The notes: generated by a model from the letters alone, not told the origin. 64,000 bases of DNA from an uncultured Muribaculaceae bacterium (GCA_964606575.1 CAZSHA010000003.1:7570-71569), one strand, 5' to 3'; positions 16,864 to 46,845 are shown, counted from the first letter of the stretch. Numbers and translations are program-made.

Positions 16864-16871
16864 TATCTTTG
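16864..16871 (+). promoter_or_regulatory. -7 promoter box (TATCTTTG) abutting the ruvX start, implying a leaderless or near-leaderless mRNA
   Basis: TAnnTTTG ends 7 nt before the ATG at 16879. Confidence 0.4.
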
Positions 16872-16878
16872 CAGTAAT

Positions 16879-17295: not shown

Positions 17296-17300
17296 ACAAA

Positions 17301-17864
17301 ATGATATTACCAATCTATCTATACGGACATCCAGTCCTACGGAAACAATCAACCGATATCACTCCCGACTACCCTAAGTTGAGCGAGCTAATCGAAAATA
17401 TGAAAACAACCATGTATGAGAGCGACGGCATAGGCATCGCCGCTCCGCAAGTAGGTTTGAACATCCGACTTGTTTACATAGATGTTGATGTGTTGAAAGA
17501 TACATATCCAGAATTAGCCGGCAGAAGTTTCATACTTATAAATCCACGTATCGAGGTGCTTGAAGACGGAAAGAAGACCAATCGTGAAGAAGGCTGCTTG
17601 AGTCTACCGGGCATACACGAATCAGTCCCACGCATCGAGAAGATTAAAGTCAACTGGCTTGATGAGAACTTTGAAGCACACGAGGAAATCATAGAAGGCT
17701 ATCTAGCACGGGTATTCCAACACGAATGCGACCATCTTGAGGGCAAAGTGTTCATAGATCATATTTCATCAATACGCAAGCAATTAATACGCAACAAGTT
17801 GCGTAACATCGTTGACGGTAAAGTGAGATGCGGCTACCGCACACGCAGTTTCAACAAGAAATAA
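17301..17864 (+). CDS. def: peptide deformylase
   Basis: Motifs [16 protein letters not shown] and HECDHL are present. Confidence 0.93.
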
Positions 17865-17906
17865 TAATAACGTTATCAACCTATACTCTAAACAAATAAA
17901 AGCATT

Positions 17907-19592: not shown

Positions 19593-19616
19593 TACGCTCA
19601 AAACGAATCTATAAAT

Positions 19617-19645
19617 AAAGGCTGTCACCACGACAGCCTTTATCA
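19617..19645 (+). terminator. intrinsic terminator after ettA
   Basis: AAAGGCTGTC-accac-GACAGCCTTT is a 10-bp stem. The T tract is weak. Confidence 0.6.
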
Positions 19646-19758
19646 TTACTTAAATCCTAAAACTAATCCTTATAAAAACACAGTGCAAATATAGTAATTC
19701 ATCCATAAAACACGTGTCTGATTCAAACGGTTCACATCTTAACTTTTTTTTGCACTGT

Positions 19759-19798
19759 ATTACAAATAGAATTTGTAATTTTACAATCGTATTACAAT
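19759..19798 (+). promoter_or_regulatory. phased TTACAA repeats / palindrome: candidate operator upstream of the OmpR-type regulator
   Basis: ATTACAAAT-aga-ATTTGTAAT is a perfect 9-bp inverted repeat (19759-19779). It is followed by TTTACAAT (19780-19787) and ATTACAAT (19791-19798). TTACAA begins at 19760, 19781 and 19792, giving 21- and 11-nt spacing. Confidence 0.4.
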
Positions 19799-19813
19799 AT
19801 AGTGACATGAGAT

Positions 19814-20536
19814 ATGGGAACTAGAATTCTTATTGTTGATGACGAACACGAAATTTGCGAGATTTTAAAATACAATCTCCAAATAGAGGGCTACGAAGTT
19901 GACGTAGCTTATAGCGCAACCGAAGCCCTTAGCTATAATCTTGCATCTTATTCATTAATTATCTTGGATATAATGATGAATAACATTAACGGATTTGAAT
20001 TAGCAAAACGTTTGAAAAACGACCCTAGCACCGAGTTTATACCTATCATATTCTGCTCAGCTCTAAGTGGAGAAGACGAGCATATAATGGGGCTTAACAT
20101 CGGAGCTGACGATTATATTACCAAACCATTTCGTACTCGTGAGGTTATAGCCAGAGTGAGAAGCGTGCTTAGACGTTCTAATGTTACAAAAATATTAACA
20201 AGCCAACGCCAAGCCGCATCACACAACAATTTCGCACCCGATTTGAGTTACCGTACGTTACGCATTGACCAAAACACAAAACAATGCTACATAAACGGAA
20301 CGCCTATCAATCTCACAAAGACTGAATATGAATTGCTGGTGTTCTTCTTGACACATAAAAACAGCATTTACACAAGAAAAGAGTTGCTTCTTAAAATATG
20401 GGACAACTCTACCAATGTTTCCAACCGTACAATTGACACCAACATAACCCGACTTCGCAAGAAGCTAGGAGATTATGGAAGTTGCATAACTACACGTCTT
20501 GGCTATGGATATGGATTTCAAGAAGTTATTATATGA
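19814..20536 (+). CDS. OmpR/PhoB-family response regulator
   Basis: The receiver reads RILIVDDEHEI...LDIMM. The winged helix reads LTKTEYELLVFFL...RTIDTNITRLRKKL. Confidence 0.9.
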   Translation: MGTRILIVDDEHEICEILKYNLQIEGYEVDVAYSATEALSYNLASYSLIILDIMMNNINGFELAKRLKNDPSTEFIPIIFCSALSGEDEHIMGLNIGADDYITKPFRTREVIARVRSVLRRSNVTKILTSQRQAASHNNFAPDLSYRTLRIDQNTKQCYINGTPINLTKTEYELLVFFLTHKNSIYTRKELLLKIWDNSTNVSNRTIDTNITRLRKKLGDYGSCITTRLGYGYGFQEVII

Positions 20537-20537
20537 G

Positions 20538-22004
20538 ATGCCTAATAGGTTCTTTTATCTCATCATAACTGTTTTTTGGCTTGTCATTGGCTCGCTCATC
20601 TTCTTGTACTGGAACAAATATTCAGCAACCAACTTCAATACGGCAAGAAAACAAATACAGATTGTAAACAATTATATGCTTACAATCAACCCCGATGACA
20701 CCACACGATTGATCACATCATCGGAGGCTCTTATCAACAACAATAATGAAACTCCTATTGACAAGTTGTTTTATACCATATACGACACAAAGGGAGATGT
20801 GTTATTCTCCAACACCAACTCAAAAAAGAATCTGAAAGTACCTTCTATAGACAAACTTAACGCAGTAGTTAAAGAAGGTACTACATTCTATCAGAGCAAA
20901 TATAGAACTTATTATGACCCCGTTCTGCAACAAGAATGCCTAATCACATCAACTTACTCACCCAAAGCAGGCAGAATTATTGTATCGGAAGCGCCAATCA
21001 AAGACATATTAAGCCTTAACAACTTCATAACTAAATTTTCAATAGAACTTATTATAATCATAGTATTATCAATCTTGGGAGTAATTTGCATCATAATGCT
21101 ACACAAGCATTTAAGCAATATAGCACGTGTGAAGAAACATCTGAATATACTAAAAGAGAAAAATGATATTATAGAATACAGAGATAGATACAAAAGCGAT
21201 ATAAATGACATACTCCATGATTTATACGCCATTTACAAAACTAAAATCAACATAATCGAACAAAAAGATAAAGAGCGGGAAAAATCTATATTAGACGAGA
21301 AAAACAGACTGCACTCAAAACGAATGCTCGCCAACAATCTAAATCATGAAATTAAAACACCTATCGGCATAATTATAGGTTACCTAGATACGCTTATCAA
21401 CCATCCTAGCATAGACAACAGCACAAAAACACAATTCTTGAAAAAATGCCTTTTCAATGCACAACGCCTTCAAAATATGGTGGTTAACATTGCTATGATC
21501 AACCGCATTGAGGACGGAAGCAGTTCTATTGCATTAGAGGAAACTAATATATGGGAAATAGCCAACCTTGTAAAAGAAGACTTAAAGTTCACTATATCAG
21601 AGAACAATATGGCATTCTCAATATCCGTAGAACCAGACACATACGTGATGTCAAACGAGATGCTGCTATATAATATCCTCAGCAACCTAGTTAAAAACAG
21701 CTGTTTATATTCAGGAGGAACTAATATAACACTTAAAACCGTCAAGACAACCGAATCTATTATAACCTTCTCATTCAGCGATAATGGAAAAGGTGTCCCA
21801 GCTGAAGCCATACCAAGACTTTTCGACCGCTTCTATAGACTTGAGCAAGACAAAAGCATGCTACACGGCACAGGGCTTGGATTGCCTATCGTAAAAGAAT
21901 CTATCAACTTATGCGGTGGAAATATAAGCGTTGATAACCGTATAGGTGGCGGACTTGAATACACATTCTCATTGCCGATAACATATAATTCCCTCTCCGA
22001 ATAA
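20538..22004 (+). CDS. sensor histidine kinase (HisKA + HATPase_c), partner of the upstream regulator
   Basis: It has two TM segments, the H-box LNHEIKTPIGII and the G-boxes DNGKGV and GTGLGLPIV. I chose the start ATG at 20538, 2 nt after the regulator stop, over the overlapping ATG at 20499. Confidence 0.85.
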   Translation: MPNRFFYLIITVFWLVIGSLIFLYWNKYSATNFNTARKQIQIVNNYMLTINPDDTTRLITSSEALINNNNETPIDKLFYTIYDTKGDVLFSNTNSKKNLKVPSIDKLNAVVKEGTTFYQSKYRTYYDPVLQQECLITSTYSPKAGRIIVSEAPIKDILSLNNFITKFSIELIIIIVLSILGVICIIMLHKHLSNIARVKKHLNILKEKNDIIEYRDRYKSDINDILHDLYAIYKTKINIIEQKDKEREKSILDEKNRLHSKRMLANNLNHEIKTPIGIIIGYLDTLINHPSIDNSTKTQFLKKCLFNAQRLQNMVVNIAMINRIEDGSSSIALEETNIWEIANLVKEDLKFTISENNMAFSISVEPDTYVMSNEMLLYNILSNLVKNSCLYSGGTNITLKTVKTTESIITFSFSDNGKGVPAEAIPRLFDRFYRLEQDKSMLHGTGLGLPIVKESINLCGGNISVDNRIGGGLEYTFSLPITYNSLSE

Positions 22005-26964: not shown

Positions 26965-26972
26965 TATTTTTG
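26965..26972 (+). promoter_or_regulatory. -7 promoter box (TATTTTTG) for the plus-strand arm of the caspase/CHASE2 cluster
   Basis: TAnnTTTG match about 90 nt upstream of the ATG at 27063. Confidence 0.35.
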
Positions 26973-27062: not shown

Positions 27063-27686
27063 ATGTTAAGGACTAAATTAACTGCTATCTTATTAGCAAT
27101 CGTTTTTGCATTTTCAGGAGCAGGCGTAACTACAGTATACGCTCAAAAAATCTCAAAAGAAGCCAAGAAAGAGGCTAAACGCTTAAAGAAAGAAGGTTGG
27201 ACTATCATCGCTGGCGGCATTCCTCTAGAACGACAAATGGATCGCACTATGGCATTACGCGAAGAGCTTAATGAAGATAACTTTCCTAAATACTTGTTCG
27301 GTGTGGGTCAAAGCGTAGCCGAAGCCTACGATGCTGCTAGAATGCAAGCTACTGAAGTTGCAAAGCAAGACCTCGCAAAGCAAATCCAAACCGAGTTGAC
27401 TTCGGAGATAAAGAGTACCATAGCCAACAACCAAATCAGTCCAGAAGAGGCTGCTACGGCTGTTGAAGTGATTGAAGCTAGCCGCAGCCTTATCACGCAA
27501 AGCATAGGTAGAGTCTTGATTATCACCGACATTTATCGTACTCTAGAAAACAAGAACATTGAAGTGCTAATCCGTATCGCCTACGACTCTAACAACATCA
27601 AGAAACTTGCGAAGCAAGCTATTCGTAACGATATGAGAAAAAGAGGCAACAACATGCACAAAAAACTTGAAGAAATATTGAAATAA
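27063..27686 (+). CDS. exported LPP20-like protein
   Basis: The signal peptide is MLRTKLTAILLAIVFAFSGAGVTTVYAQ. The core GVGQSVAEAYDAARMQATEVAKQDLAKQIQTELTSEIKS resembles LPP20-family lipoproteins. This is a similarity judged from memory. Confidence 0.5.
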   Translation: MLRTKLTAILLAIVFAFSGAGVTTVYAQKISKEAKKEAKRLKKEGWTIIAGGIPLERQMDRTMALREELNEDNFPKYLFGVGQSVAEAYDAARMQATEVAKQDLAKQIQTELTSEIKSTIANNQISPEEAATAVEVIEASRSLITQSIGRVLIITDIYRTLENKNIEVLIRIAYDSNNIKKLAKQAIRNDMRKRGNNMHKKLEEILK

Positions 27687-27796
27687 TTCTATACAGCAGG
27701 TAATTAGTTGTGCCTGTGCTGATTCGGCTAGGCACAACTATTATAACTTTTAAGGATTTGTTTTTCTCCATCAGACTAACACTTATTTTTCACAAC

Positions 27797-29428
27797 ATGA
27801 AACTCAACAAATTCATCACAGCAATAATATTTTTCAGTACAACGGTAGCAACCTCTTTGGCTGGCACAAGCGTTTCTGGCAAGCCTCAAATGCCAGGCGA
27901 TGACATGCTTATTAACGCCAAAGAATCCTACGAAGAATATAAACGACGCGCACAAGAGAGTTATCAAACCTACCAAGACGAGGCAATAACAAGATACCTC
28001 GACTTCCGTGACAGCGTATTGCTTGAATTTGTCAAAAGCATGAAACAGCCTTGGAAAAAAGAGGCGAGCAAACCTGCTGTTCCTAAACCTGTGGACAATT
28101 CCATTGAACCTGAAATTGTAACAATAGAAGAAGGGTTGAAACAGCTAGATCAAAAAAGGCAACAAAACAGCAACAGCGAGCCACAAGTTAAGCCAATCGA
28201 CATTTCAGAAAAAGCCAATAAACAAGTAACAGTAAAATCTACAGTTGTCGTCCCTGAGCTGGAAGAAATCCAGCCAGCCGAACCCTTTGTCCCTGTAATA
28301 ACTAGTCCCGATGACACTCCAGAAACGTTTAATTTCTTGTTTTACGGAACTATGTTATCAGCTAGAATTGACGACAGTTGCAAATTTAAAATCGAAACTA
28401 TCGACAACAATGGCGTTGCTAAAGCAATGGCACAAATCGTGTCAAACAACATGTTGCACACAACACTTAGCGACTGCATCGAAATAAGAGATAAATATAA
28501 ACTATGTGATTGGGCTTATATGCAAATGCTTGTAACCCTAGGTTATGAGTTCTTCGGTGGGGCGACCAACGAAGCCACATTGCTCACGGGATATTTATAT
28601 TGCATGTCGGGATATAAGATGCGTTATGGCTATGATAACAACAATAACCTTCGCATACTTTTTGCTTGCGACCAGCACATCACCGACATCCCGTTTATTA
28701 GCCTAAGAAGTGACGGTTTCAAGAACTATTACATCTTAAACGGCTCAAAAGAGAAAAACGAAATGCACATTTGCGACTATTCGTTCCCGCAAGAGAAAGC
28801 CATGTCGCTTTATGTGAAAGATATACCACTTTTCGACAACGACCTAAGCAACTTTAACATGAAATTGCACTCTTACCCTATCCAACTAACTTACAAGATA
28901 AACAAGAACCTGATTGACTTCTATGAAAGTTATCCTACACCTCGCACAGGCAACGATGTATACTCAAAATGGGAATACTACGCTCGCACACCTCTAAGCG
29001 AAGAAGCTAAAAACGCAATCTACCCTATTCTTAAAAAAGAGCTTGCAGGAAAGAGCGAACTTGAATCGGTCAACATACTAATGGACTGGATTGAAACTTA
29101 TAAATACGGTTATGATTCAAAAATATGGGGCTACGACAGGGCATTTTTCCCAGACGAAACTCTTTTCTATCCATCTAGCGACTGTGAAGACCACGCTATC
29201 CTATTAACTAGATTAGTTAGCGACCTTTTGGGATTAAAAACCGCTTTCATTTATTACCCTGGGCATTTGGCTGCGGCCGTTAAATTCACCGAAGATGTTC
29301 CTGGCGACTACATAATGCACGAAAGCGATAAATATACCGTATGCGACCCGACTATTTATTATGGGAAAGCAGGCAGGACTATGAAAGATGTAAGCAACGA
29401 TGAAGCCACTGTTATCGTATTACCATAA
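27797..29428 (+). CDS. exported protein with a C-terminal transglutaminase-core-like (Cys-His-Asp) domain
   Basis: I chose the start at the ATG at 27797 (MKLNKFITAIIFFSTTVATSLAG, a signal peptide). The C-terminus reads SSDCEDHAILLTRLVSDLLGLKTAFIYYPGHLAAAVKF...YTVCDPT, which fits the C..H..D(P)T pattern of the transglutaminase/papain-like fold. The Cys codon is at 29183-29185. Confidence 0.55.
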   Translation: MKLNKFITAIIFFSTTVATSLAGTSVSGKPQMPGDDMLINAKESYEEYKRRAQESYQTYQDEAITRYLDFRDSVLLEFVKSMKQPWKKEASKPAVPKPVDNSIEPEIVTIEEGLKQLDQKRQQNSNSEPQVKPIDISEKANKQVTVKSTVVVPELEEIQPAEPFVPVITSPDDTPETFNFLFYGTMLSARIDDSCKFKIETIDNNGVAKAMAQIVSNNMLHTTLSDCIEIRDKYKLCDWAYMQMLVTLGYEFFGGATNEATLLTGYLYCMSGYKMRYGYDNNNNLRILFACDQHITDIPFISLRSDGFKNYYILNGSKEKNEMHICDYSFPQEKAMSLYVKDIPLFDNDLSNFNMKLHSYPIQLTYKINKNLIDFYESYPTPRTGNDVYSKWEYYARTPLSEEAKNAIYPILKKELAGKSELESVNILMDWIETYKYGYDSKIWGYDRAFFPDETLFYPSSDCEDHAILLTRLVSDLLGLKTAFIYYPGHLAAAVKFTEDVPGDYIMHESDKYTVCDPTIYYGKAGRTMKDVSNDEATVIVLP

Positions 29429-30561
29429 TGGATAACAAGAAATACATAATCTTCAAAATACTTATCGTAACCCTGATTACGGTAGTATTATCCAAATCAA
29501 TGGTGATGATACCGCTTGATTTCAGTGCTTTTTCATCAAACAACTCAGGCAGTATCAACCAATTCGACATCTATACCGATATTTTAAGCCGTTCGGGTGA
29601 TATCGAATACGAAGATAACGTTGTCGTGGTCACGATACCTGAAAGAGCAGGAAGAGCTGAACTGGCAGAAGCATTAAGCCTACTTGCTCAATGTCAACCA
29701 GCCACCATATCAGTTGATATTCATTTAGAAGGTAAGCGCGACGCAGAGGTTGACAGCATGCTGCTTGTTGCTGTTGAGGAGAATGAAAACGTTATTTTCC
29801 CATGTTTTACCGACAAATTACAAGACACTACAGGTTTTTTTATACAAACTGGAGAATACGGAATAAGTCGCGGATACGTCAACCTTGACAACTTCGGCAA
29901 AGAGAATGCAGTAATGCGTACTTTCACACCATATTACGTAGATGGCAACGACACCATATACAGTCTTTCATTAGAAGCCGTAAGACGCATATTCCCCGAA
30001 AAAGTTGAGCGGTTGAAACAACGTAAAGTTGACCATGATTTCATAAACTACATGCGCGAAATTCCTTGCTTCAATTACAAGGATATTCCAATATTCGCCG
30101 ATGAGATAACAGGAAAAATCGTATTGCTCGGATGCGATGCGCAATACGACACGCACCGCACACCTATTAACTCTAGACTATTAGGTCTTAAAGTTCATGC
30201 TTACACCGCATCGACTGTCATCAACGAGGCTTATATAGACCGACCGGCAACATGGGTTACAACATTCATAACGATTCTCACACTAGGTGTATTCTCATTT
30301 TTGTCTATATTATATGTGATTAAGACACCTAAATTTGCGGGGTTCTTTACACGTTCTACGACCTATCTAAGTTTTTTCACATTCCTAATATTAGGATTTA
30401 TTGTTTTTTACGAGTACAACCTATATATCGACTCAGCTTGGTTTCTTATAGGTATCGCATTTGCCCCATGGTCACTTGACTTATATAACTTCATTGAAAC
30501 AATGATAACTAAACTAAAGAAAAGGATTAAAAGTAAAAAAGATAATAACTTAAACACATAA
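29428..30561 (+). CDS. stand-alone CHASE2 domain membrane protein (no output domain)
   Basis: An N-terminal TM is followed by a domain of about 250 aa outside the membrane, with DNVVVVTIPERAGRAELAEALSLLAQCQPATISVDIHLE (the CHASE2 signature region), and then three C-terminal TM helices. The ATG overlaps the upstream stop (ATAATGG). Confidence 0.65.
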   Translation: MDNKKYIIFKILIVTLITVVLSKSMVMIPLDFSAFSSNNSGSINQFDIYTDILSRSGDIEYEDNVVVVTIPERAGRAELAEALSLLAQCQPATISVDIHLEGKRDAEVDSMLLVAVEENENVIFPCFTDKLQDTTGFFIQTGEYGISRGYVNLDNFGKENAVMRTFTPYYVDGNDTIYSLSLEAVRRIFPEKVERLKQRKVDHDFINYMREIPCFNYKDIPIFADEITGKIVLLGCDAQYDTHRTPINSRLLGLKVHAYTASTVINEAYIDRPATWVTTFITILTLGVFSFLSILYVIKTPKFAGFFTRSTTYLSFFTFLILGFIVFYEYNLYIDSAWFLIGIAFAPWSLDLYNFIETMITKLKKRIKSKKDNNLNT

Positions 30562-30568
30562 CATAAAT

Positions 30569-31321
30569 ATGAAACGCAGAATAACATTATTTTCGGCACT
30601 AGTTGTAACAGTTTGCACAATAATATGTATTGCTGTGAACAAAGATTACAAAGTGCTTGACATCAGGGGATCTATTATAGTGGACAACACTAAGACTGAA
30701 CTTGCTAAAGGACAGACTATAAAAGGTGGTGATATTCTTATTGCCGACCGCCAATCTTACATGAAAGTTCATGACACAAAGCGTTCTTACACGCTTCGTG
30801 TATCAGGTAAGCATTCTGTAAAGGAACTTATCGATAATATGCCTAGCAAATATAAATCGGCTATCTCTAACATTAAAGATAACCTGCTAAAGGCAAAAAA
30901 GACAAATATCGTATACGGTGTAGTGACTATGAACTTAGAAATGGACGGTTTTGAGCTAGAAGAAAACGAAGCCTTCGTACTTTGCAAAGAAGATTCACTA
31001 GGAAACTTAGCGGTAGCGTTCATGAGAAGCGGAATGGAAACACCTATGATGTACACACTTAACCCTCAATCTTACATTTATTTGTTAAAGATGTCACTTC
31101 TAACGGTTCAAGGTTATGAATACGCTTATGAGCTTGAAAACTCCGCTATTTATGATGTGCTATGGAAACCGCTTGAAAAATATTTCCAACCAGGCGACAT
31201 CGTTATGTTCTCGTTACCTGAAAGCTTAGCACACATCACAATGGAAGATATTCCAGTTGATGAAACACGTAATCTGTCTGACCTATATGAGTTGTATCAA
31301 TTAGACAGCGCAAGCGAATAA
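30569..31321 (+). CDS. membrane-anchored hypothetical protein, possibly FecR-like at the N-terminus
   Basis: An N-terminal TM (ITLFSALVVTVCTIICIAV) is followed by VLDIRGSIIVDNTKTELAKGQTIKGGDILIADRQSYMKVHD, which is reminiscent of FecR sensor domains. It starts 7 nt after the CHASE2 gene. Confidence 0.35.
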   Translation: MKRRITLFSALVVTVCTIICIAVNKDYKVLDIRGSIIVDNTKTELAKGQTIKGGDILIADRQSYMKVHDTKRSYTLRVSGKHSVKELIDNMPSKYKSAISNIKDNLLKAKKTNIVYGVVTMNLEMDGFELEENEAFVLCKEDSLGNLAVAFMRSGMETPMMYTLNPQSYIYLLKMSLLTVQGYEYAYELENSAIYDVLWKPLEKYFQPGDIVMFSLPESLAHITMEDIPVDETRNLSDLYELYQLDSASE

Positions 31322-31342
31322 ATCTCAAAATTTGAATAAAAT

Positions 31343-31379
31343 AAATTGCCGCACCTCCATCACGAAGTGCGGCAATTTT
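31343..31379. terminator. bidirectional intrinsic terminator between the two convergent arms
   Basis: AAATTGCCGCAC-(12 nt)-GTGCGGCAATTT is a 12-bp stem with A/T runs on both sides. Confidence 0.8.
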
Positions 31380-31420
31380 CATATCCCATCTTTTATTATT
31401 CTGCTTACACTCAAAATTAG

Positions 31421-32302
31421 TTATTTAAGACTAATCGTTACATCTTTTGGTATAAGAATCATTTTTGCATCACGGTCACGATTTGCCAACAACCATTTTT
31501 GGAAATCATCATAAGGCAAAGATCTAAGTTTCGTTATATCACCTTCACTTACTCTACCATTGTCAGAAGGACGGATAAACTCATTTGTTGAAAATATAAT
31601 ATAGATACGATTATACTCTATAGGTTTTTTCGTTGTCATTTTCACACGAGTAATTTCCTTTGTAGTTACTTCAATTGGATTCTTATGTTCCTTAGAGAAA
31701 AATATATAATCCCTATCGGCCTCTACAGGATAAGAACTAATACTTGTTTTATCGTATGGCAACATACGATATGCCATATCATCTTCACCCAATGAATAAA
31801 CAGCAAGATATCCGCTTACAGGCGTTCTGAAAGATAGATAAAGTTTATCACCGCTTACAAAATCAGCATCTTCTGACATTTCATCAGTATGATTTCTTAA
31901 CAGGCGAGCTGTCACGTCAAATCCTGCACCCACGATTTCACGAGCCCTGCCCCACACCTTTGCCCTAAGAACAGGCATTCCGGTATTAGGATCATTAGAC
32001 ATCGTTATCTCAGGAGATTTAGTATCACCAAGCCATACTCCTTTCACCTCACTCAATCCATACGAAACAAAGTCTGTTTTTCCATTTTTTGTTTTTGTTT
32101 GGTTCCTTTGCTGTATAAATGTTCCAAATTCCTCTGCTAGGGCAACTGTTCTAGCTCTCTCAATCGCTTTAAGTTGAGCTCCTTTATATGTATCTAATTC
32201 GTTCTGAACATATACAGCCTCGCCACTTACATTCTTCACTTTTTGAGCAAAACATGAACCAATAGCAAATGTCAACAATAATGCTGTTATATAAAATCTC
32301 AT
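31421..32302 (-). CDS. exported LPP20-like + DUF4384-like protein
   Basis: After the signal peptide MRFYITALLLTFAIGSCFAQ, the N-terminal part reads GAQLKAIERARTVALAEEFGTFIQQ (LPP20-like). The C-terminal part GDKLYLSFRTPVSGYLAVYSLGEDDMAYRMLPY matches my memory of DUF4384, a domain often fused to or found next to caspases. Confidence 0.5.
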   Translation of the reverse strand: MRFYITALLLTFAIGSCFAQKVKNVSGEAVYVQNELDTYKGAQLKAIERARTVALAEEFGTFIQQRNQTKTKNGKTDFVSYGLSEVKGVWLGDTKSPEITMSNDPNTGMPVLRAKVWGRAREIVGAGFDVTARLLRNHTDEMSEDADFVSGDKLYLSFRTPVSGYLAVYSLGEDDMAYRMLPYDKTSISSYPVEADRDYIFFSKEHKNPIEVTTKEITRVKMTTKKPIEYNRIYIIFSTNEFIRPSDNGRVSEGDITKLRSLPYDDFQKWLLANRDRDAKMILIPKDVTISLK

Positions 32303-32319
32303 TTCTTTCTATATGTTTT

Positions 32320-35022
32320 TTAATTTCTGATTTTTATATTCTTCCATGACATCATCAATGGATCTGATGGCATAACATCTGGAGTTTGTGTCTTACTATC
32401 CTTATTATCAAGGGTTGACTGACGGATAACATTTTCCTTTACATAATCATATAGTTCTCCCATAGTTACATCACCCTTAGTTTCCTTCAACTTCTTCAAC
32501 AAGAAATATGTAAACAAGCCATGACCTTTACCTTCATACGGATAAGCCATTTCATCACCAGAGCAAGCTGTCATAACAATCATATTACCTTCTGTCAATT
32601 CTTCTTCATCAGTATCTACTACGACACCACGTGCAGCAAAAAGCATTTCACCACTTCTAGAACCTCCACTGAAACAACAATCCAAGAATACATTGACATG
32701 CTCTGCTCCAGCTTCCACTATTTTATTATAAAACTCATTCATTGAGAATGCGCCTTCCAAACTTTTTGGGTTTCCATCTTTAGATAAGAAATAAGCCTTA
32801 GATGTGCTGTAATCCGGTACGCCATGACCTGAATAATATATCACGGCTTTAGCTCCTTCTCCGTATACTTTTAACTTTTTTACGTATGTTTCTATTTGTG
32901 TCTTCATTTGCAAATAACTTGCATCTGGCACAAACGTTACGTTCTTTTCAGGAATTCCTAGAACTGAAGTACAATAATTAGCGAATGAACGTCCATCTGC
33001 TATCGCACAAGTAACATCACCCACATTATCATAATGCTCATTACTTATAATCAAAGCAAATGTATTATCATTAACCACATCAGTAACTACAGGAACATCA
33101 ATATCCACATCGCTCTTCTTATTTGCACCACCAATTGTTCTTGTTCCAGTTGTTTGTTTTGATTGACCTTGAGCCCTAGCTAGAAGGTTTTCATCCAGTA
33201 CATCACCCAAACCAATAGGATTAGTAATCGTTACGTCAACATCCTCATAAGCCAATTCCTCACGCATGTCATACTTATACGAAGGACCGCCAGATATTGA
33301 TATAAAATCCAAACCAGCTAACACTAAAGTATCCCCAACAACATCAAATTTTGGATTCTTTATAGATATATCTTTCTTTTCCCACGCCGTACTAAAATTT
33401 TGAGCCTCATTATTCGCCATTGGCACTTTAACCAACATATAACCCAAGTTATAGCTTAGCTTATACACTTCATTGTCGGCATCATAATCACTCAACTTGA
33501 TACCTCCTTTTTGAAGTGATGCCAAAATAGTTATAGAATATCTATCTATATAAGCCTTTTTAGCCTCATTAATCAATTCCAATCGCTTATTCTTTAATGA
33601 TTCACCTGATGTACGAAGCTCATAATCCGCAGTTTTTTCGTATGTACCCTTTTGTCGCCACACCATCAAGCGTTCAGCCACATAATCGTATGCATAAATA
33701 GGAAAGATTGGAACACCCAATGACGATACCTTTCGAGAACCGTTATCCTTACTCACATTAGCTTTCGCATAGGCAAACATAGATTCCTCAGCAAGAAGTT
33801 CAGCTTTTCTTTGGGTATCAATCATTTCACCATTTTTAGCGGCCAACACACGTGCTTCTTCTTTACGGTCAAGCCAAACGTATGCGTCTATCAACGCTTT
33901 CAAATATTCACCTTTGAACCCTCTATCTACAACTTGCACTAGTAGTTTTGAAGCATTTTCCAAATATGGATATAACTCAGGCAACGGCTTGCCGAAATTA
34001 TCAACCTTGCCGTTCTTCCTTTCAGTTAGCACATAATTAAAGCTAGCACATGCAAATCGTTTGATATTATCAATATTATTTGTGTCTAAAGCATATAATT
34101 GCTCACATGCCGCAAGGCTTGAACGATAATCACCATTCAATTCGTGTATCCTAGATTTTAAGCTCAACACCTTCGATTGGTTCTTTTCTAGCCTTTCATA
34201 GTTCATCATGTGTACTTCTGCTTGAGCAACGTTACCAGTCATAATATGGTACTCCACGACATCATGCAAGATATTCATATCATTTGGCAACTTCTGAGCA
34301 CCTTTCATCAAAGTGAGAATTTGATCGTCACCTTGACCGCAGAAACCGTATGCTTTCGCCAACGATGTATATACTTTGCTTTCATATGTCTTATCATGAG
34401 TAAGCAAATATTCTTCCAACATCACAGTCGCTGCAGAGAATTCCTTAGCGTTAAATTTATGGGATGCCACATAATACACAAGTTGTGGATAACTTGATGG
34501 ATTCTCAAAAGCCTCATCCTTAAAGAAGTCATGTTTCGGAATCAATATGTATTTTTCAAGCATGCTTACAGCCATTTCTGTATTATTCCTTTTGCTATAA
34601 GCGATACCGCCATTCATCAAAGTCGGGCGTAAAGTCCTCAATCGGCTCTTAGCAGTAATGTAATGTGCAACTAAGGCAGTATCGTTAAGCACTTTCATAC
34701 AGCTCTCGCCACATTCGTCAACAACATAATATAACCTATCACCAGTCACATTACTTTTCACCAACGATTCGTATACAGCATATAGACTATCAGCCCTGTC
34801 GGCTTCAGTTTTTTCCACAACAGGTTTTGCTGAATCAAGCGTGTCTGCCATTCCCATGTTGTCAGAAAGAACTTCTGCATCATTAGTAGACACTTCAACG
34901 GTCTCACCTGGTAGCGGAGTATGCGTTTCCGACGGATTTTGAGCATTTACCGCAAAAAATCCAACTGACACTACAATAGCTAAACTATATAAAAAATACT
35001 TTTTCATAATTGTTTTAAACAA
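32320..35022 (-). CDS. exported TPR-repeat protein with a C-terminal caspase-fold (peptidase C14) domain
   Basis: It has a signal peptide (YSLAIVVSVGFFAVNAQ) and a helical TPR-like region at aa ~90-400. The C14 domain spans aa ~650-880 with VIYYSGHG (His733, codon 32824-32826) and FLDCCFSGG (Cys783, codon 32674-32676), which is the canonical SGHG...DxCxSG dyad. Confidence 0.85.
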   Translation of the reverse strand: MFKTIMKKYFLYSLAIVVSVGFFAVNAQNPSETHTPLPGETVEVSTNDAEVLSDNMGMADTLDSAKPVVEKTEADRADSLYAVYESLVKSNVTGDRLYYVVDECGESCMKVLNDTALVAHYITAKSRLRTLRPTLMNGGIAYSKRNNTEMAVSMLEKYILIPKHDFFKDEAFENPSSYPQLVYYVASHKFNAKEFSAATVMLEEYLLTHDKTYESKVYTSLAKAYGFCGQGDDQILTLMKGAQKLPNDMNILHDVVEYHIMTGNVAQAEVHMMNYERLEKNQSKVLSLKSRIHELNGDYRSSLAACEQLYALDTNNIDNIKRFACASFNYVLTERKNGKVDNFGKPLPELYPYLENASKLLVQVVDRGFKGEYLKALIDAYVWLDRKEEARVLAAKNGEMIDTQRKAELLAEESMFAYAKANVSKDNGSRKVSSLGVPIFPIYAYDYVAERLMVWRQKGTYEKTADYELRTSGESLKNKRLELINEAKKAYIDRYSITILASLQKGGIKLSDYDADNEVYKLSYNLGYMLVKVPMANNEAQNFSTAWEKKDISIKNPKFDVVGDTLVLAGLDFISISGGPSYKYDMREELAYEDVDVTITNPIGLGDVLDENLLARAQGQSKQTTGTRTIGGANKKSDVDIDVPVVTDVVNDNTFALIISNEHYDNVGDVTCAIADGRSFANYCTSVLGIPEKNVTFVPDASYLQMKTQIETYVKKLKVYGEGAKAVIYYSGHGVPDYSTSKAYFLSKDGNPKSLEGAFSMNEFYNKIVEAGAEHVNVFLDCCFSGGSRSGEMLFAARGVVVDTDEEELTEGNMIVMTACSGDEMAYPYEGKGHGLFTYFLLKKLKETKGDVTMGELYDYVKENVIRQSTLDNKDSKTQTPDVMPSDPLMMSWKNIKIRN

Positions 35023-35094
35023 TCCTTATAATACTTCCTTTTAATATCTTTATATTCTGCCAGAGCAGATTGAGGTTAAAATTACGCTTTATTA

Positions 35095-37185
35095 TTATTT
35101 TTTCATTTGCTCTTTGAAAGTGTCAACGAACTTCAACGCCACCTTGATACGGCGGAACTCGCTACCCTTTTCTTTCGACACTTCCACATTGTATTTATAT
35201 TCAATAGGCATATTGGCATTGGCAAATGTGGTCTTTGCCAAATAATCACTTACACCTATCGCGCGAATCAACGCAAGTTGCTCATTTGACTTTATACCGG
35301 CAGCCTTAGTGATTGTCATATTTGTCAACTCACCGTCTTGTGCAGCCAACTGATTCTCGATGTCGCCATACTCGCCATTATATCTTAACTTACCTATAAT
35401 AGGTGTTGCATCAGCCGAGCCTGTGATTGAAACCACAAGTTTCTTGCTGTCGCCCATATATTTCGCAAAATCACCTTTTATAGAGTTGTCGATAATGTTA
35501 AGCATTTGAACAGCTGCATTAGATTCTGTAGCCACATATTTACCAGCTTTGAAATCATCGCGCGCTGAAAATTCCTCCTCAACTTGATACATATAGCTAA
35601 CGTTGTAGTTAAGAATTTTGTTACCATCGGCATCAACGTCCTGTTCAACTTCGGTATTAACGGTAATGTGAGTATGGTCAGTAAGCAAGCTCTGAGTCTT
35701 AGCCTCTTCCACCACTTCCTCTTTCATTGTCTCCAATTTTGCTGCTTCAACGTTAGCCAATTGAATCACCTCCATTGGCACGAACGAACTTTCATCATAA
35801 ACTAACTTTTCACGGTTACGGTTGTCATACATATACACCTTACCAGTTTTCTTGTTTCTAGCCTCAGTATATATGACCTCAAAATTGTCGTTAGCATCAA
35901 GACCATAGACCGTATTGATGAATTCCAAGTCATTGATATTGTTCAAGTCGTTCAATTCGGCAGAAGGAATATTCAAATAAATTGAAGGCATATTGTCGAA
36001 ATTAACGGCAAGGGCTTGATTTGTTTCTACATAATTACCAAGTTTAGCGCCGTCATTTGCAATCAAGTTACCTGCCATCGCAGTAACAAGGTCGTTTTCA
36101 AGCTGCAATGCTTTTTGAGCGCGGGTTTCGTCGTTTACACGGGCACGGTAGTCTGCTTCCGACTCTCCCGGTTGCATCTTAGCCCACTCCGTCAATTCCA
36201 AACCAAGCCGCATCTTCAAGTCTTTTGCGTGATAACGCTCAATATTAGACAAAGGATATACACCTACCGTTCCAGGCTTGATATATAGCAAATTATCTTT
36301 CCCGAATGAATCGCTGAACAAATCAAGATTCAACAAATCGCTACCATCAACACTTATCAAATAATCGACCTTTGATGTCAACAAGTTCACCAATTCAAAA
36401 GATTTACCAGCATTAACAATAACATATTTTCCTTGCGGATGGAAGATACAGTTTTTAGCTCCTGATATTGCCGGGTATGATTTCTTTTCTTTCAAATCGG
36501 CAATGTCTACCACTTTCAATGTTCCGTCAGCAAGCAACACAGCAAACTCTCTATAATCGTCAGAAAAATCTATATCAAGCACAGGTTGACCATAATTCAA
36601 AACTTTACGGCTCGTGCCACGCTCAAGGTTGAATACTTCCACATTATCACCCTCAAGCATTAATGCCACATTACTAGCCTTGTTGATTTGAACTTTAGTG
36701 GGAGTTCCCGCCAATTGTACAGAATATTTCGTTTTATCTTTAACTTTCTCATCGGTAACACACTTATTCACCTTGTTGTCCATAGTAAAGACTAACACAA
36801 ATGTTCCGTCAGGAGAATAAGCCAAGCTCCATATTTGATTCTTCTTTTCGGTCTTGAAAAGAACTTTTCCCTCTTCTTCAGTGTATGGGTCAAACAACCT
36901 CACCTTCTTTTCATCGCAATAAAGCACCTTTCCTCCAATAAGAGGTGACAATGTCCACTTAACCGGCTTAAACCCTTCCATTTTAAATCCTGAATATACA
37001 CTCATATCGCCCTTCAGGCTTTGACCCAGCACAAAGTATGAGTTGTTTTGTGCTTTCACATAAGGTTCGCCTTTGAGTTTCAACAAGAACAAGCTATCAG
37101 GAGACAGAAACTCTTGGGCATTTAACATTGCAGGTGCGCAAGTCAGCGCAACACCGGCAATTACTGTCAACATTTTTCCTTTCAT
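35095..37185 (-). CDS. exported beta-propeller (WD40/TolB-like) protein with a C-terminal OmpA-like peptidoglycan-binding domain
   Basis: I chose the start at MKGKMLTVIAGVALTCAPAMLNAQ (cat at 37183-37185). The repetitive beta-rich aa 40-330 include ...LAYSPDGTF... The C-terminus reads ITGSADATPI...SNEQLALIRAIGVSDYL...GSEFRRIKVAL, a degenerate OmpA_C pattern. Confidence 0.6.
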   Translation of the reverse strand: MKGKMLTVIAGVALTCAPAMLNAQEFLSPDSLFLLKLKGEPYVKAQNNSYFVLGQSLKGDMSVYSGFKMEGFKPVKWTLSPLIGGKVLYCDEKKVRLFDPYTEEEGKVLFKTEKKNQIWSLAYSPDGTFVLVFTMDNKVNKCVTDEKVKDKTKYSVQLAGTPTKVQINKASNVALMLEGDNVEVFNLERGTSRKVLNYGQPVLDIDFSDDYREFAVLLADGTLKVVDIADLKEKKSYPAISGAKNCIFHPQGKYVIVNAGKSFELVNLLTSKVDYLISVDGSDLLNLDLFSDSFGKDNLLYIKPGTVGVYPLSNIERYHAKDLKMRLGLELTEWAKMQPGESEADYRARVNDETRAQKALQLENDLVTAMAGNLIANDGAKLGNYVETNQALAVNFDNMPSIYLNIPSAELNDLNNINDLEFINTVYGLDANDNFEVIYTEARNKKTGKVYMYDNRNREKLVYDESSFVPMEVIQLANVEAAKLETMKEEVVEEAKTQSLLTDHTHITVNTEVEQDVDADGNKILNYNVSYMYQVEEEFSARDDFKAGKYVATESNAAVQMLNIIDNSIKGDFAKYMGDSKKLVVSITGSADATPIIGKLRYNGEYGDIENQLAAQDGELTNMTITKAAGIKSNEQLALIRAIGVSDYLAKTTFANANMPIEYKYNVEVSKEKGSEFRRIKVALKFVDTFKEQMKK

Positions 37186-37277
37186 TTGTTTATTTATTTC
37201 GACATGATTCCTAACCACATCTGGTTAATATTTTATTGATTTTTAGCAATAATCTACTATCAAGGCATTTTCTTTTG

Positions 37278-37285
37278 CAAAATTA
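37278..37285 (-). promoter_or_regulatory. -7 promoter box (TAATTTTG) for the minus-strand arm (propeller-caspase-DUF4384)
   Basis: The plus strand reads caaaatta. It lies about 93 nt upstream of the ATG at 37185. Confidence 0.35.
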
Positions 37286-40642: not shown

Positions 40643-42424
40643 ATGAAGAAATTTACACCGCTATTCATTGCGGCAAGCGGATTGTTGCTATCTGCGACTT
40701 TCGTTTCTTGCGACAATGAATATGACTTGTCAAAAGACATTGACACCGACATCAACGTTGGTAAGAATTTCACAATTCCTGTAGGACAAACAGTAAAAAT
40801 CAACCTAGGACGTATCATCGAAGATGGTGACCTTCAAACAAACGGAGAAGGTATCTACGAGCTACACTCAAATGGCGAATTTAATGCTCACATCGCCGAT
40901 GTCGACCCATTCGTGATCAACGGTCTTGACCCAGACTTTGAAGATTTCAACGCAGGGAAACTATCCAGTCTTCCTATTCCAGGTGACTTCAATATACCTC
41001 TTGACGTGTTAACTCAAGCAAACTACATCCCTGTGGAAACTGAAACAGCTATGCCTATCGAGGTACAAGAAATGTATCTTGCCGAATTTAATTACGGTGA
41101 AGGAGCTAAGGGTGAAATTAAAATACGTATTAGCAACTTGGCTGGTATCAACAGCGTAACACTCAAGGATATCGACCTAGTGTTCCCTGACCTAGTTACT
41201 ATCCACGGCTCAAATGCAGCTAATGCACACGAAATTAGAATTCCCGAACTTGTACTTAACAAGAGCAACAACTTTGAGGGGTCTATTCCTGTAAACATCC
41301 TTCGTTTTGAAATCTCAGAAAACGACCAAAAGACTTATTTCTCTGACAAGTATTTCGACGGTAGCAAAGATGCTGAAGGTCGACTAATTTTCCGACTAGA
41401 CAAAAAAATCCTTCTATCGGCAAAAACTACTGTAAACGTAACACCTTCAGAATTGCCTAACGAAGAATTCCACCTATACTTCGGCTACACAATTCCTCAA
41501 ACTTCAGTAACTAAGGTTAACGGTGTCATAACGCCTAACGTAAAGATTGAAGAGCAACTTGTTCTTAACGACCTTCCAGAGTTCGTAACCGACAAATCTT
41601 CATCTTTCACTCCTAACGATTTGAAATTCACAATTTCGTTGAAGAATCCTATTGATTTGGCTTTCGCTACATCTTTCACCATCACTCCATGGAATGACGA
41701 AACTAATTCGGCTCTAGGTGAACCTATCGTTATCCCTGTAAGCGGCGAAACTGCAATCAAGCCTTCAACCACTACTGGTTATGTTATTTCTAACGAACCT
41801 TGTAAAGTGCCTAGCGGATATATCAACATTGTTGAGCCAAACATACCTAGCCTACTTGCTACAATCCCAGATTCTTACAAAATTGTGTCGGGCGCTATCA
41901 CAGCCGACGGCGGTGAAGGCTCAGGCTTCAACCTTGGCGAGAATTTGGCTATAGAAGGTAACTACGACATCGAAGTTCCTTTCAACTTCAAGAACTTCAG
42001 CATTAACTACACTGGAGAAATCGACAATCTTCTAAGCGATTTGGAAGATGCTGCTGAGTTGACCGACAAGATTATCCTTTCAATGAATGCAGTAAGCACA
42101 ATACCTGTTGAGCTTATCGCTGACATAAAGCTATATGACTATTATGGAAATGAATTAAAGGAAATCAACGTCACTGGAACATCTCGCAACAAAGTTACAA
42201 TAAAGGCTTCACCAGACGGTAGCACAGAAACTACAACTCCGCTCACCATCACATTGGAAGAGCCACAAGGTAGCGACCAACTTGAAGAACTTGAAAAGAT
42301 AGTATACACTATCAAAGCGGCAAGTCCATCTAGCGATGGCGAATATATTTTGAAATCTAGTCAATATTTGATTCTAAAAGATGGTGTTGCTAAGGTTCCT
42401 AATGGTCTAACTCTTGAACTTTAA
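40643..42424 (+). CDS. large lipoprotein, function unknown
   Basis: The lipobox signal is MKKFTPLFIAASGLLLSATFVSC. It is 593 aa and beta-rich, and I recognise no motif. Confidence 0.55.
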   Translation: MKKFTPLFIAASGLLLSATFVSCDNEYDLSKDIDTDINVGKNFTIPVGQTVKINLGRIIEDGDLQTNGEGIYELHSNGEFNAHIADVDPFVINGLDPDFEDFNAGKLSSLPIPGDFNIPLDVLTQANYIPVETETAMPIEVQEMYLAEFNYGEGAKGEIKIRISNLAGINSVTLKDIDLVFPDLVTIHGSNAANAHEIRIPELVLNKSNNFEGSIPVNILRFEISENDQKTYFSDKYFDGSKDAEGRLIFRLDKKILLSAKTTVNVTPSELPNEEFHLYFGYTIPQTSVTKVNGVITPNVKIEEQLVLNDLPEFVTDKSSSFTPNDLKFTISLKNPIDLAFATSFTITPWNDETNSALGEPIVIPVSGETAIKPSTTTGYVISNEPCKVPSGYINIVEPNIPSLLATIPDSYKIVSGAITADGGEGSGFNLGENLAIEGNYDIEVPFNFKNFSINYTGEIDNLLSDLEDAAELTDKIILSMNAVSTIPVELIADIKLYDYYGNELKEINVTGTSRNKVTIKASPDGSTETTTPLTITLEEPQGSDQLEELEKIVYTIKAASPSSDGEYILKSSQYLILKDGVAKVPNGLTLEL

Positions 42425-42446
42425 TCAAAAAACGCTTAAAAAGTAA

Positions 42447-43817
42447 ATGATTATGAAAAATTCAATCAAACATATACTTACGGTAGCTTTAGTTACCATT
42501 TTAGGATTTTCAGCTTCGGCTCAAACCCTAAACTCACTATACTTCCTTGACGGTAATACACAACGTCACAATCTAAACCCTGCTTTCACATGTGATAAGG
42601 GGTGGATTACCACACCGCTTTTAGTTCCGTCATTGTCGGTTAATTTAAATAGCAACATCGGCTTGGAAGCTATTATGCGACCATCGACAATCAACAACGA
42701 TGAAATGGTTACATTCTTGCATCCTAGCATAACTGCCGAAGATGCAATGTCTAAGTTCCAAGACATGAACACTCTTGAAACAGACATCTCCCTAAACATC
42801 CTTACTATCGGATTTAAGGGATTCGGAGGTACTAACACCATTGCCTTGAACGTGAAAAGCAATACTGGTCTATATATTCCAAAAGACATTTTCCGTTTCC
42901 TAAAGGAAGGACAAGAGGAAGACGGTACTACCGAATACAATATTGACAACTTTGGGGTTCGCACACAAAACTATGCAGAAATCGCATTAGGTCATGCTCG
43001 TGACATCAACAGCAAGCTATCTGTCGGTGCTAAGGTTAAGTTCCTTCTAGGAGCAGGCTACGCCAATGCTGATATTGAACACATACGTATCTACATGAGC
43101 GGCAACGAATGGACTATTGAGCAACAAAGCTCACTAGTAGCATCAAAAGGTATGAGCCTAATAACTAAGGACAACGGAAAAATCGACGATTTTGAATATG
43201 AGTTCAAAATGGGCGGTTTCGGTCTTGGATTCGACCTAGGTGCAATATATCGCCTACAAGACAATTTGAACCTATCGTTTGCAATCACCGATCTTGGTTT
43301 CATCAACTGGAGCGATGCTACTAAGCACACCAACGTAAGAGAGTCTTATACTTATGACGGTTTTGACAACTTCGCTGCAGAAGAAAGTAAAGATTTCGAG
43401 GATGCCGCTGAAGACGTAGGAGATGCTCTTGAAGAATTTATCCGATTCAAAGAAGACACAGAATCTACTTCACAAACATCCTCACTTTACACAACATTCC
43501 GTGCAGGTGCTGAATATGGACTAGTTAAAGATAAAATAACTCTAGGTTTCTTAGGTACAATGAGAGTTGGCACACCTAAAACTTACACTGAAGGTATGTT
43601 AACATTGAATTTAAAGCCATCATCACACTTCAACATGGCTATTAACGGCTCATTGTCAAGCACACACGGTTCTATGGGTGCTACATTAAACTTCAATCCT
43701 AGCTTCATGAACTTCTTTATCGGAGCTGATTATTTGCTGGCAAAATACAGCAAGCAAGTTATTCCGGTCGATGCCGCTAAGTTCAACTTCGCAATGGGTA
43801 TGAGTTTCCGCCTATAA
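42447..43817 (+). CDS. outer-membrane beta-barrel protein, PorP/SprF- or DUF5723-like
   Basis: After the signal peptide ...GFSASAQ comes TLNSLYFLDGNTQRHNLNPAF (an N-terminal NPA-type motif). Alternating beta-strand patterns run throughout, and the C-terminus FNFAMGMSFRL is aromatic-rich. It starts 22 nt after the lipoprotein gene. Confidence 0.45.
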   Translation: MIMKNSIKHILTVALVTILGFSASAQTLNSLYFLDGNTQRHNLNPAFTCDKGWITTPLLVPSLSVNLNSNIGLEAIMRPSTINNDEMVTFLHPSITAEDAMSKFQDMNTLETDISLNILTIGFKGFGGTNTIALNVKSNTGLYIPKDIFRFLKEGQEEDGTTEYNIDNFGVRTQNYAEIALGHARDINSKLSVGAKVKFLLGAGYANADIEHIRIYMSGNEWTIEQQSSLVASKGMSLITKDNGKIDDFEYEFKMGGFGLGFDLGAIYRLQDNLNLSFAITDLGFINWSDATKHTNVRESYTYDGFDNFAAEESKDFEDAAEDVGDALEEFIRFKEDTESTSQTSSLYTTFRAGAEYGLVKDKITLGFLGTMRVGTPKTYTEGMLTLNLKPSSHFNMAINGSLSSTHGSMGATLNFNPSFMNFFIGADYLLAKYSKQVIPVDAAKFNFAMGMSFRL

Positions 43818-46828: not shown

Positions 46829-46845
46829 CTTAAATCCTTTATTTA

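Follow-up and report, generated by a model that had tools for sequence, protein, structure and literature searches.

An exported WD40 protein and TPR-caspase pair as the core of a candidate modular proteolytic system in the envelope of gut Bacteroidales

Caspase homologues of bacteria are mostly treated as effectors of cell death or defence in the cytoplasm, whereas the family considered here bears export signals throughout. What might a caspase-fold protease be doing outside the cytoplasm, and do the exported proteins encoded around it belong to the same system? The question is raised by seven tightly packed open reading frames (ORFs), here called P1 to P7, at positions 27063-37218 of a 64,000-nucleotide stretch of DNA from an uncultured Muribaculaceae bacterium (GCA_964606575.1 CAZSHA010000003.1:7570-71569). 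We refer to the whole stretch as the window and count positions from its first nucleotide. A prior inspection of the DNA without database searches, the sequence-only reading, had described seven genes in two convergent units, and the ORFs are confirmed as such, with P1-P4 on the plus strand facing P7-P6-P5 on the minus strand. The intergenic gaps measure 0-110 nucleotides in the plus arm, where the start of P3 overlaps the stop of P2 (29428), and 17-87 nucleotides in the minus arm. The expectation that every product carries a signal peptide or a transmembrane anchor holds too: all seven have an N-terminal hydrophobic segment, and the signal peptides of the four soluble exported proteins (P1, P5, P6 and P7) end in ...AQ. 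In Bacteroidota this is the usual signal-peptidase-I site, with cleavage before the glutamine. On balance, we favour the view that the locus encodes one modular proteolytic system acting in the cell envelope, with a core of P7 and P6 to which accessory parts are added, and in the physiology of the cell it probably serves to mature envelope proteins or to control their turnover, and not to bring about suicide. Both protease families keep their catalytic residues, and the accessory genes recur in shuffled orders.

The protease that gives the locus its interest is P6 (32320..35007, minus strand), an exported protein of 895 residues, or of 900 if translation starts at a TTG at 35022; residue numbers below follow the 900-residue form. 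A TPR-like helical region (residues ~70-420, nucleotides 33763-34815) is followed by a segment that we term the X domain (residues ~450-600, nucleotides 33223-33675) and by a Peptidase_C14 domain (nucleotides 32374-33060), which matches PF00656 over residues 655-883 (60.2 bits where 21.4 is the cut-off; E=3e-16). The C14 peptidase with an intact dyad that had been foreseen from the sequence, next to TPR repeats, is confirmed: H733 (codon 32824-32826) lies in an SGHG motif and C783 (codon 32674-32676) in a DCCFSG motif, both invariant in 9 orthologues. Across 98 homologues H733 is kept in 95 and C783 in 94, the remainder being alignment gaps, and since the adjacent C782 is usually alanine in the homologues, C783 is the nucleophile. 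The alignments make it look as though these residues are under selection and the enzyme is active as a protease. Its relatives number in the hundreds, as seen in an exhaustive search and in locus scans.

Like the prokaryotic caspase homologues of MEROPS family C14, P6 has its His/Cys dyad set in SGHG and DCCFSG motifs, and domain surveys have already found bacterial metacaspases associated with WD40, TPR, DUF4384 and CHASE2 (PMC3501461; PMC7475262). In some of these enzymes, N-terminal helices that are possible signal peptides have been noted as well (PMC3501461). In the present locus, by contrast, the partners are separate exported proteins encoded in a conserved operon, the caspase itself is extracytoplasmic, two unmodelled domains (X and the Y domain described below) link the central pair, and NTPases, those of the NACHT type included, are absent. 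The NCBIfam model for the EACC1-associated caspase (NF047832) gave P6 71.9 bits against a cut-off of 140, and no EACC1-like gene is found in its neighbourhood. Relative to the known caspase-homologue systems, the combination of an exported, multi-component and NTPase-free organization with two unmodelled domains is new. No published description of such a system was found in the literature, in line with the sequence-only reading, which knew of no functional account of such a fully periplasmic module in Bacteroidales.

P7 (35095..37185, minus strand; ORF open from a GTG at 37218) is a 696-residue exported scaffold consisting of a WD40 beta-propeller (residues ~60-320, nucleotides 36229-37011), a second copy of the X domain (residues ~321-470, nucleotides 35779-36228) and a C-terminal Y domain (residues ~485-694, nucleotides 35107-35736). 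Of the beta-propeller and OmpA-like end originally attributed to this protein, the former stands firmly: a family profile of 39 sequences retrieved the WD40 structure 2ymu from PDB with E=1.2e-71 and the WD40 region of Apaf-1 with E=6e-36, and the single sequence gave Pfam propeller matches down to E=6e-10. These WD40 matches were the only useful result when profiles of P1, P2, P5, P6, P7 and the Y domain were compared with PDB sequences. The OmpA-like end is less secure. The Y domain bears an OmpA_C-like G-x-x-D...N-x-x-L-x-x-x-R signature, whose G122, D125, N167, L170 and R174 do not vary among 22 diverse Y domains, with an insertion of ~38 residues, and a permissive local hhalign comparison with OmpA, Pal and MotB covers OmpA_C from end to end, albeit at E=0.068. 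A hidden Markov model (HMM) of the P7 C-terminus gave no significant match to OmpA, Pal and MotB sequences, and the Y-domain profile retrieved no OmpA-family or PorE chain from the PDB sequences at E values up to 10. Judged on these alignments, the OmpA-like assignment of the P7 end is only suggestive.

That P7 and P6 work together is indicated by the domains they share and by the way in which these are fused in their relatives. In 36 P6-like proteins, the segment that directly precedes the caspase domain is matched by positions ~315-470 of the P7 profile (E values down to 3e-16), and pairwise BLASTP of P6 with P7 recovers the X domain at 2e-4; X has no relative in Pfam or PDB. An exhaustive search with P7 yielded 928 relatives, ~60 being full-length proteins with 30-40% identity, including one annotated as Bacteroides fragilis and one as Rikenellaceae. 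In 23 of the 150 best of these relatives, the Y domain (in P7, the C-terminal 210 residues) stands directly upstream of a P6-type caspase, and 5 of the 23 hold propeller, X, Y and caspase in a single chain. The N-terminal additions of the Y-caspase proteins vary, comprising a WD40 propeller with X, a CARDB domain or an outer-membrane beta-barrel. Nearly all relatives, fusion proteins included, have signal peptides. Fusions of this sort are classical evidence that P7 and P6 act as a pair and that the place of action of the family is extracytoplasmic.

The Y and X-Y units are also joined to other envelope domains in several P7 relatives (P0272, P0254, P0160 and P0193), the combinations being outer-membrane beta-barrel-Y-caspase, CARDB-Y-caspase and TonB_C-propeller-X-Y, while in P0193 one polypeptide unites DUF3857, a transglutaminase core and X-Y. 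Such varied fusions point to a wider family of envelope-anchored thiol proteases.

Could the pair be structural rather than enzymatic? PorE (PG1058), a component of type IX secretion in Porphyromonas, is a periplasmic protein that combines TPR, WD40 and an OmpA_C-like peptidoglycan-binding domain (PMC5053529, PMC12773672). The domain set of P6 and P7 taken together (TPR, WD40, possibly OmpA_C-like) mirrors this arrangement, the signature residues of Y match those of OmpA_C, and P7 is highly conserved, as might be expected if P7-P6 tethered an outer-membrane machine to peptidoglycan while the caspase had a minor or self-processing role. We consider this very unlikely, however, given that the catalytic His and Cys are kept in essentially all 98 homologues, which argues for selection for catalysis, that the P7 and Y profiles brought up neither an OmpA-family chain nor PorE in PDB, and that type IX secretion genes did not turn up alongside the pair in any locus examined. 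Unlike PorE, which has no protease, the domains here are divided between P6 and P7 and joined to a caspase, without a CRD domain; there is no detectable sequence relationship to PorE, and the type IX secretion genes are missing from the vicinity.

If the P7-P6 pair forms a unit, the next question is how far this unit extends to the other five genes. A metagenome scan with the P7 alignment gave 206 loci, of which 80 were kept; family HMMs were mapped on all loci, these were dereplicated at 85% P7 identity into 50 lineages, and features were counted within ~10 kb of P7. P6 lies immediately downstream of P7 in every lineage with downstream DNA (~46 of 50). P5 is near P7 in 36 of the 50 lineages, a P2-like gene in 20 (in at least six arrangements), a P1-like gene in at least 10, and the CHASE2 gene P3 in 8, with P4 likewise in 8. 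P7 and P6 are therefore the invariant core of a system that is widespread in gut Bacteroidales, including B. fragilis, and the occurrence of CHASE2 and P4 in only 8 of 50 lineages marks these two as accessory.

The seven families are found contiguously in three gene orders. The convergent layout of the window recurs in five other loci (L001, L003, L012, L017 and L022). In a second layout, all seven genes lie on one strand in the order P1-P2-P3-P4-P7-P6-P5 (L018, a Muribaculaceae genome from a scan of species-representative genomes), and in a third, again on one strand, the order is P3-P4-P7-P6-P5-P1-P2 (L034, L048 and L072), the P4-like and P1-like genes being recognised at weaker scores in this last group. 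Both single-strand layouts have flanks that differ from those of the window and gaps of tens of bases. Further orders include P1-P5-P2-P7-P6, P7-P6-P1-P5-P2, P7-P6-P5-P2, and P1-P7-P6 with P5 and P2 opposed; in such orders (L044, L058, L054, L026 and L074) P1 and P2 accompany P7-P6 without CHASE2, and P1-like genes keep company with P2 and P5 in several of them. A P2-like gene occurs about once per genome; from its adjoining the core in 20 of 50 lineages and in many orders we infer that chance adjacency is not credible. The co-occurrence of all seven families in three orders supports a functional link, as the sequence-only reading had supposed.

The opposing view is that two or three unrelated envelope operons (P1-P4, P5-P7) adjoin by coincidence or inherited synteny and that the arms are functionally uncoupled. 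The convergent arrangement itself speaks for it, each arm having a promoter box of its own and a terminator lying between them. The plus arm has a TAnnTTTG box (TATTTTTG, 26965..26972, plus strand) ~90 nucleotides upstream of P1, a candidate for the Bacteroidota -7 promoter element, and the minus arm a comparable candidate (TAATTTTG, 37278..37285, minus strand) ~90 nucleotides upstream of the P7 start. The predicted box for each arm is accordingly present, although the motif is no more frequent than chance (78 matches in the window against 70.5 expected), so that only its placement is informative, and suggestive at that. The shared terminator that had been proposed between the arms corresponds to a hairpin at 31343..31378 with a 15-bp stem, 7 GC pairs, and A- and T-rich runs on its flanks. 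A strong hairpin of differing sequence occupies the same position in the five orthologous loci with the convergent layout, and an equally strong hairpin of unrelated sequence at the same spot is the pattern expected of a functional bidirectional terminator; we regard the hairpin as a probable bidirectional intrinsic terminator.

Synteny offers the coincidental view a second argument. The closest relatives keep not only the seven genes, with P6 identities of 42-55%, but also the housekeeping flanks, rho on one side and tilS on the other; synteny alone would hold the arms together there, and the conservation seen in the closest relatives by itself proves little. Each part, moreover, occurs alone elsewhere. 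Against it stand the contiguity of the families in two other orders, on a single strand and with other flanks, the association of P2 and P1 with P7-P6 in further orders without CHASE2, and the fusion of a transglutaminase-core protein to X-Y in P0193. We therefore judge a merely coincidental neighbourhood unlikely.

Outside the closest relatives, the composition of the locus shrinks in ways that are informative about its core. In three lineages that are more distant, P7-P6-P5 is all that adjoins tilS, and one of the three still has P1-P2 next to rho. P7 shows 67-78% identity where rho shows 75-79%, and P6 and P5 diverge faster. The P7 of B. fragilis is 99.7% identical to that of eleven human-gut loci, each with P7-P6 alone, and loci of this type have the pair at a fixed site between the gene for a CCA-adding enzyme and that for an M24 peptidase. 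A gene of the CCA-adding/poly(A) polymerase family is present in the window as well (59644-61086, minus strand), 22 kb from the cluster; since it adjoins P7-P6, immediately upstream, in B. fragilis and is this distant here, that neighbourhood is probably coincidental. Partial duplications also occur: a second caspase gene lies upstream in L035, L038 and L039 (~6820-13711), two P6 genes are found in L033, two P7 genes in L055, and two P2 genes flank the core in L029.

The second protease family of the locus is represented by P2 (27797..29428, plus strand), a 543-residue exported protein with a probable ATG start in an ORF that is open from a GTG at 27710. A long helix, a Pro/Lys/Glu-rich linker and middle domains precede a C-terminal core with the likely fold of transglutaminase-type thiol peptidases. 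The Cys-His-Asp transglutaminase-core protein announced from the sequence was upheld in its triad and is plausible in its fold, whereas the PF01841 (Transglut_core) scores stayed below the cut-off of 23 (14.3, 16.8, 16.2 and 16.0 bits in four homologues). These sub-threshold matches recur on one C-terminal region in every homologue tested. C463 (codon 29183-29185), H490 (29264-29266) and D517 (29345-29347) stand in the canonical order and are invariant in 45 aligned homologues; among 36 homologues from the loci, C463 and H490 are each kept in 35, while D517 is kept in 31 and replaced by Glu in 4. An AlphaFold model of P2 (pLDDT 83, pTM 0.81) retrieved mostly transglutaminase-fold thiol peptidases, including BDI_1141 and a putative Cytophaga protease, the top Foldseek matches being 3kd4, LapG 4fgp (probability 1.0), 3isr, TglA, PNGase, vasohibin and menin; against 4fgp the target-normalised TM-score is 0.47 and the Foldseek E value 0.02. 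The model makes the transglutaminase fold likely, and with the conserved triad the enzyme is probably active.

In one Bacteroidales species group (L014, L015 and P0044-P0125), several dozen P2 homologues share 98-99% identity, and only the length of their Pro/Lys/Glu-rich linker sets them apart (602-694 residues, in steps of 2 residues). The DNA of one of them (L015:9299-9650) has a 30-nucleotide tandem repeat in 5.6 copies, encoding APEPEKEVTP, in addition to repeats of 6-36 nucleotides. The linker thus resembles a TonB-like rigid spacer of strain-variable length.

In its export, its Cys-His-Asp triad and its encoding beside an inner-membrane protein with a periplasmic domain, P2 recalls LapG of the LapG/LapD system. 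It differs in being three times larger, with extra domains and the Pro-rich linker, and neither a LapD-type HAMP-GGDEF-EAL receptor for cyclic di-GMP nor a LapA-type RTX adhesin is found in the window cluster or in related loci.

The inner-membrane protein in question is P3 (29428..30561, plus strand), a protein of 377 residues in which a single N-terminal helix leads into a periplasmic CHASE2 domain (residues 58-291, nucleotides 29599-30300) and further helices follow at the C-terminus. It matches PF05226 with 59.3 bits against a cut-off of 26.3 (E=6e-16), its hydrophobic segments are at 11-29 and 280-334, and the orthologue in L014 is alike. No cytoplasmic output domain (kinase, cyclase or GGDEF) was found by Pfam, and the protein ends ~20 residues past its last helix. 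The description of P3 as a CHASE2 protein without an output domain is accordingly correct, its C-terminus being made of membrane helices. The idea that the CHASE2 domain is a caspase-fold pseudo-enzyme was ruled out (hhalign E=0.78).

P4 (30569..31321, plus strand), whose gene always lies downstream of the CHASE2 gene, has 250 residues, with a single N-terminal anchor, a small beta-domain and a conserved domain without known relative. The FecR-like character first ascribed to it has to be given up: the window and L014 orthologues had no match in Pfam at E values up to 1, FecR and LysM included, the structural model (pLDDT 68) had no match to the FecR fold in Foldseek, and an HMM comparison with E. 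coli FecR was not significant.

These two proteins are central to the alternative in which the locus is a ligand-triggered periplasmic signalling or abortive-defence system, with CHASE2 and P4 sensing phage, bile or peptides and firing both proteases. Several precedents speak for it. CHASE2 is a genuine extracytoplasmic sensor domain, and a CHASE2-metacaspase fusion is known from Trichodesmium (PMC3501461), where the protease remains in the cytoplasm; P3 differs from it in having no cytoplasmic part at all. In the Burkholderia BiofilmReg operon (COG4254), a CHASE2 sensor is paired with a periplasmic FecR-domain partner (PMC5192318), which is similar to P3-P4 insofar as a CHASE2 membrane protein stands beside a small exported or anchored partner, and dissimilar in that CHASE2 in Burkholderia belongs to a histidine kinase, which is accompanied by a response regulator, whereas P3 has no output domain. 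Caspase folds act in some defence systems too, and the generic caspase model of PADLOC matches P6 at 2.7e-11.

The distribution and setting of the genes nevertheless make a triggered defence system quite unlikely. CHASE2 and P4 are absent from 42 of the 50 caspase-pair lineages, B. fragilis included; they are found with P1-P2 in loci that have no caspase; P4 is not demonstrably FecR-like; and the locus encodes no NTPase, nuclease or pore-forming effector. PADLOC matched none of the other six proteins and no defined anti-phage system. The fixed core-genome position among housekeeping genes, the ordinary guanine-plus-cytosine (GC) content of the cluster, which is similar to that of the rest of the window, and a slowly evolving P7 that is about as conserved as rho, taken with a PADLOC result limited to the generic caspase, favour a housekeeping or regulatory role over suicide or defence and argue against the abortive-defence proposal. 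Of the sequence-only formula of a sensor, two proteases and anchors, what survives is the linkage of the genes and the two thiol-protease folds with their catalytic residues; the CHASE2 sensor is not central, being confined to 8 of 50 lineages.

How might the modular envelope system that we favour operate? P7 would serve as a platform that binds P6, perhaps through X-to-X contacts, and keeps it in one position within the envelope, while the Y domain would fix the complex there, possibly on peptidoglycan. The WD40 and TPR surfaces could recruit substrates or further partners, and P6 would cleave exported proteins. P2 may contribute a second thiol-peptidase activity or else act as a cross-linker, its targets being either these same substrates or the P7-P6 complex, with P5 and P1 as candidate adaptors, inhibitors or substrates. 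Where they are present, CHASE2 (P3) and P4 might gate the system from the inner membrane. Since the CHASE2 protein has no cytoplasmic output, such gating would run through periplasmic protein contacts, and its nearest parallel would be LapD holding the transglutaminase-fold protease LapG.

The platform model invites comparison with the Apaf-1 apoptosome and with the bacterial STAND/NTPase-based caspase conflict systems, which likewise combine WD40 and TPR scaffolds with a caspase-fold protease. Those systems are cytoplasmic and NTPase-driven (for the bacterial ones, Kaur et al. 2020, PMC7159879), whereas P7 and P6 are exported and NTPase-free. A tentative proposal, which we think rather doubtful as it stands, is that the locus encodes an extracytoplasmic, NTPase-free counterpart of the apoptosome, in which a WD40 platform would bind the TPR-caspase via X, Y would be its tether to the wall, and the transglutaminase-fold protein and, in some lineages, the CHASE2 protein would tune it. 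If true, the apoptosome-like reading would define a new class of regulated envelope proteolysis and would offer a candidate for the Arg/Lys-type processing protease of surface proteins in those Bacteroides that have no gingipains.

Several observations weigh against a single modular envelope system or against particular parts of its proposed mechanism. The first group concerns linkage. P1-P4 occur without the caspase arm in other Bacteroidales (L014, L015 and L103), P1-P2 face P5 only in L102, and P7-P6 stand by themselves in at least five lineages with full flanks. In L021 (GCA_964536025.1, Muribaculaceae, 7498-20957), P1-P2 lie beside rho and P5-P6-P7 beside tilS, CHASE2 and P4 are missing locally, and a 9-kb block splits the two groups, with six housekeeping genes in the place of P3-P4. 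The arms in the window are separate transcription units, and the several layouts may share one ancestral juxtaposition and are then not fully independent observations. The second group concerns the proteins. Every fold match of P2 has an E value above 0.001. The X domain common to P6 and P7 was established with the deeper P7 profile only, hhalign of shallow P6 and P7 alignments giving it just E=0.17. PF00691 (OmpA) does not match P7, and 2 of the 22 Y-domain sequences reach E ~0.1; peptidoglycan binding by Y would be a possibility at most. Finally, the physical P7-P6 platform is something that we infer. The separate occurrence of the parts leads us to describe a modular system and not an obligate seven-gene unit.

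The block inserted in L021 comprises lptF/G, tgt, a C11 peptidase gene, mscS, recJ and recQ, and the breakpoints of the rearrangement coincide exactly with the module borders.

Some consequences follow from the distribution of the core. It is conserved in the core genomes of abundant gut bacteria (B. fragilis, Rikenellaceae and Muribaculaceae), and because the minimal two-gene unit P7-P6 is present in a genetically tractable species, B. fragilis, it is directly testable. H733 and C783 of P6 and C463 of P2 are clear sites for point mutants, and the X and Y domains can be turned into profiles. If P6 does process envelope or surface proteins, a gap in our picture of exported-protein maturation or turnover in Bacteroidales would be filled, and the range of caspase-fold enzymes would extend to the periplasm.

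The two remaining proteins of the locus are P1 and P5. P1 (27063..27686, plus strand) is a 207-residue exported protein with a signal peptide ending in ...YAQ and a conserved KKEGW motif. It had been called LPP20-like, an assignment that is not sustained, since a single sequence matches and reaches 14.7 bits where 25.9 is the cut-off; P1 has no cysteine and its L014 orthologue had no LPP20 match. A PDB match to Cag3 was set aside as a lysine-rich low-complexity match, and so was homology of P1 to the P5 N-terminus, in which hhalign had aligned the signal-peptide end only. P5 (31421..32302, minus strand) has 293 residues and comprises an N-terminal alpha/beta domain followed by a DUF4384-like domain (residues ~148-239). 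The window protein scores 19 bits with DUF4384 against a cut-off of 27, and its orthologues 16.6, 20.9 and 32.8 bits, the last of which passes. Of its initial description as an LPP20/DUF4384-like lipoprotein, the DUF4384 part is hence plausible, the LPP20 part falls away because no match was found, and the lipoprotein part fails since the cysteine of the signal peptide is not conserved; cleavage of P5 by signal peptidase I is probable.

Beyond the cluster, two other gene groups of the window are of note. At 40643-43817 (plus strand), a 593-residue protein without a Pfam match is followed by a DUF5723 protein, and this pair is kept beside tilS-pheS-nth in all related Muribaculaceae loci. At 45356-58239 (minus strand) there is a long run of genes for proteins of ~430-460 residues, of which three were sampled, two matching FtsX-type permease and one HlyD. 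An ABC ATPase is encoded within this run at 49523-50197 and an outer-membrane efflux protein at 45356-46828, a sigma-54 response regulator is encoded next to it (43997-45331), and the whole resembles an ordinary but unusually expanded exporter cluster of the MacB type.

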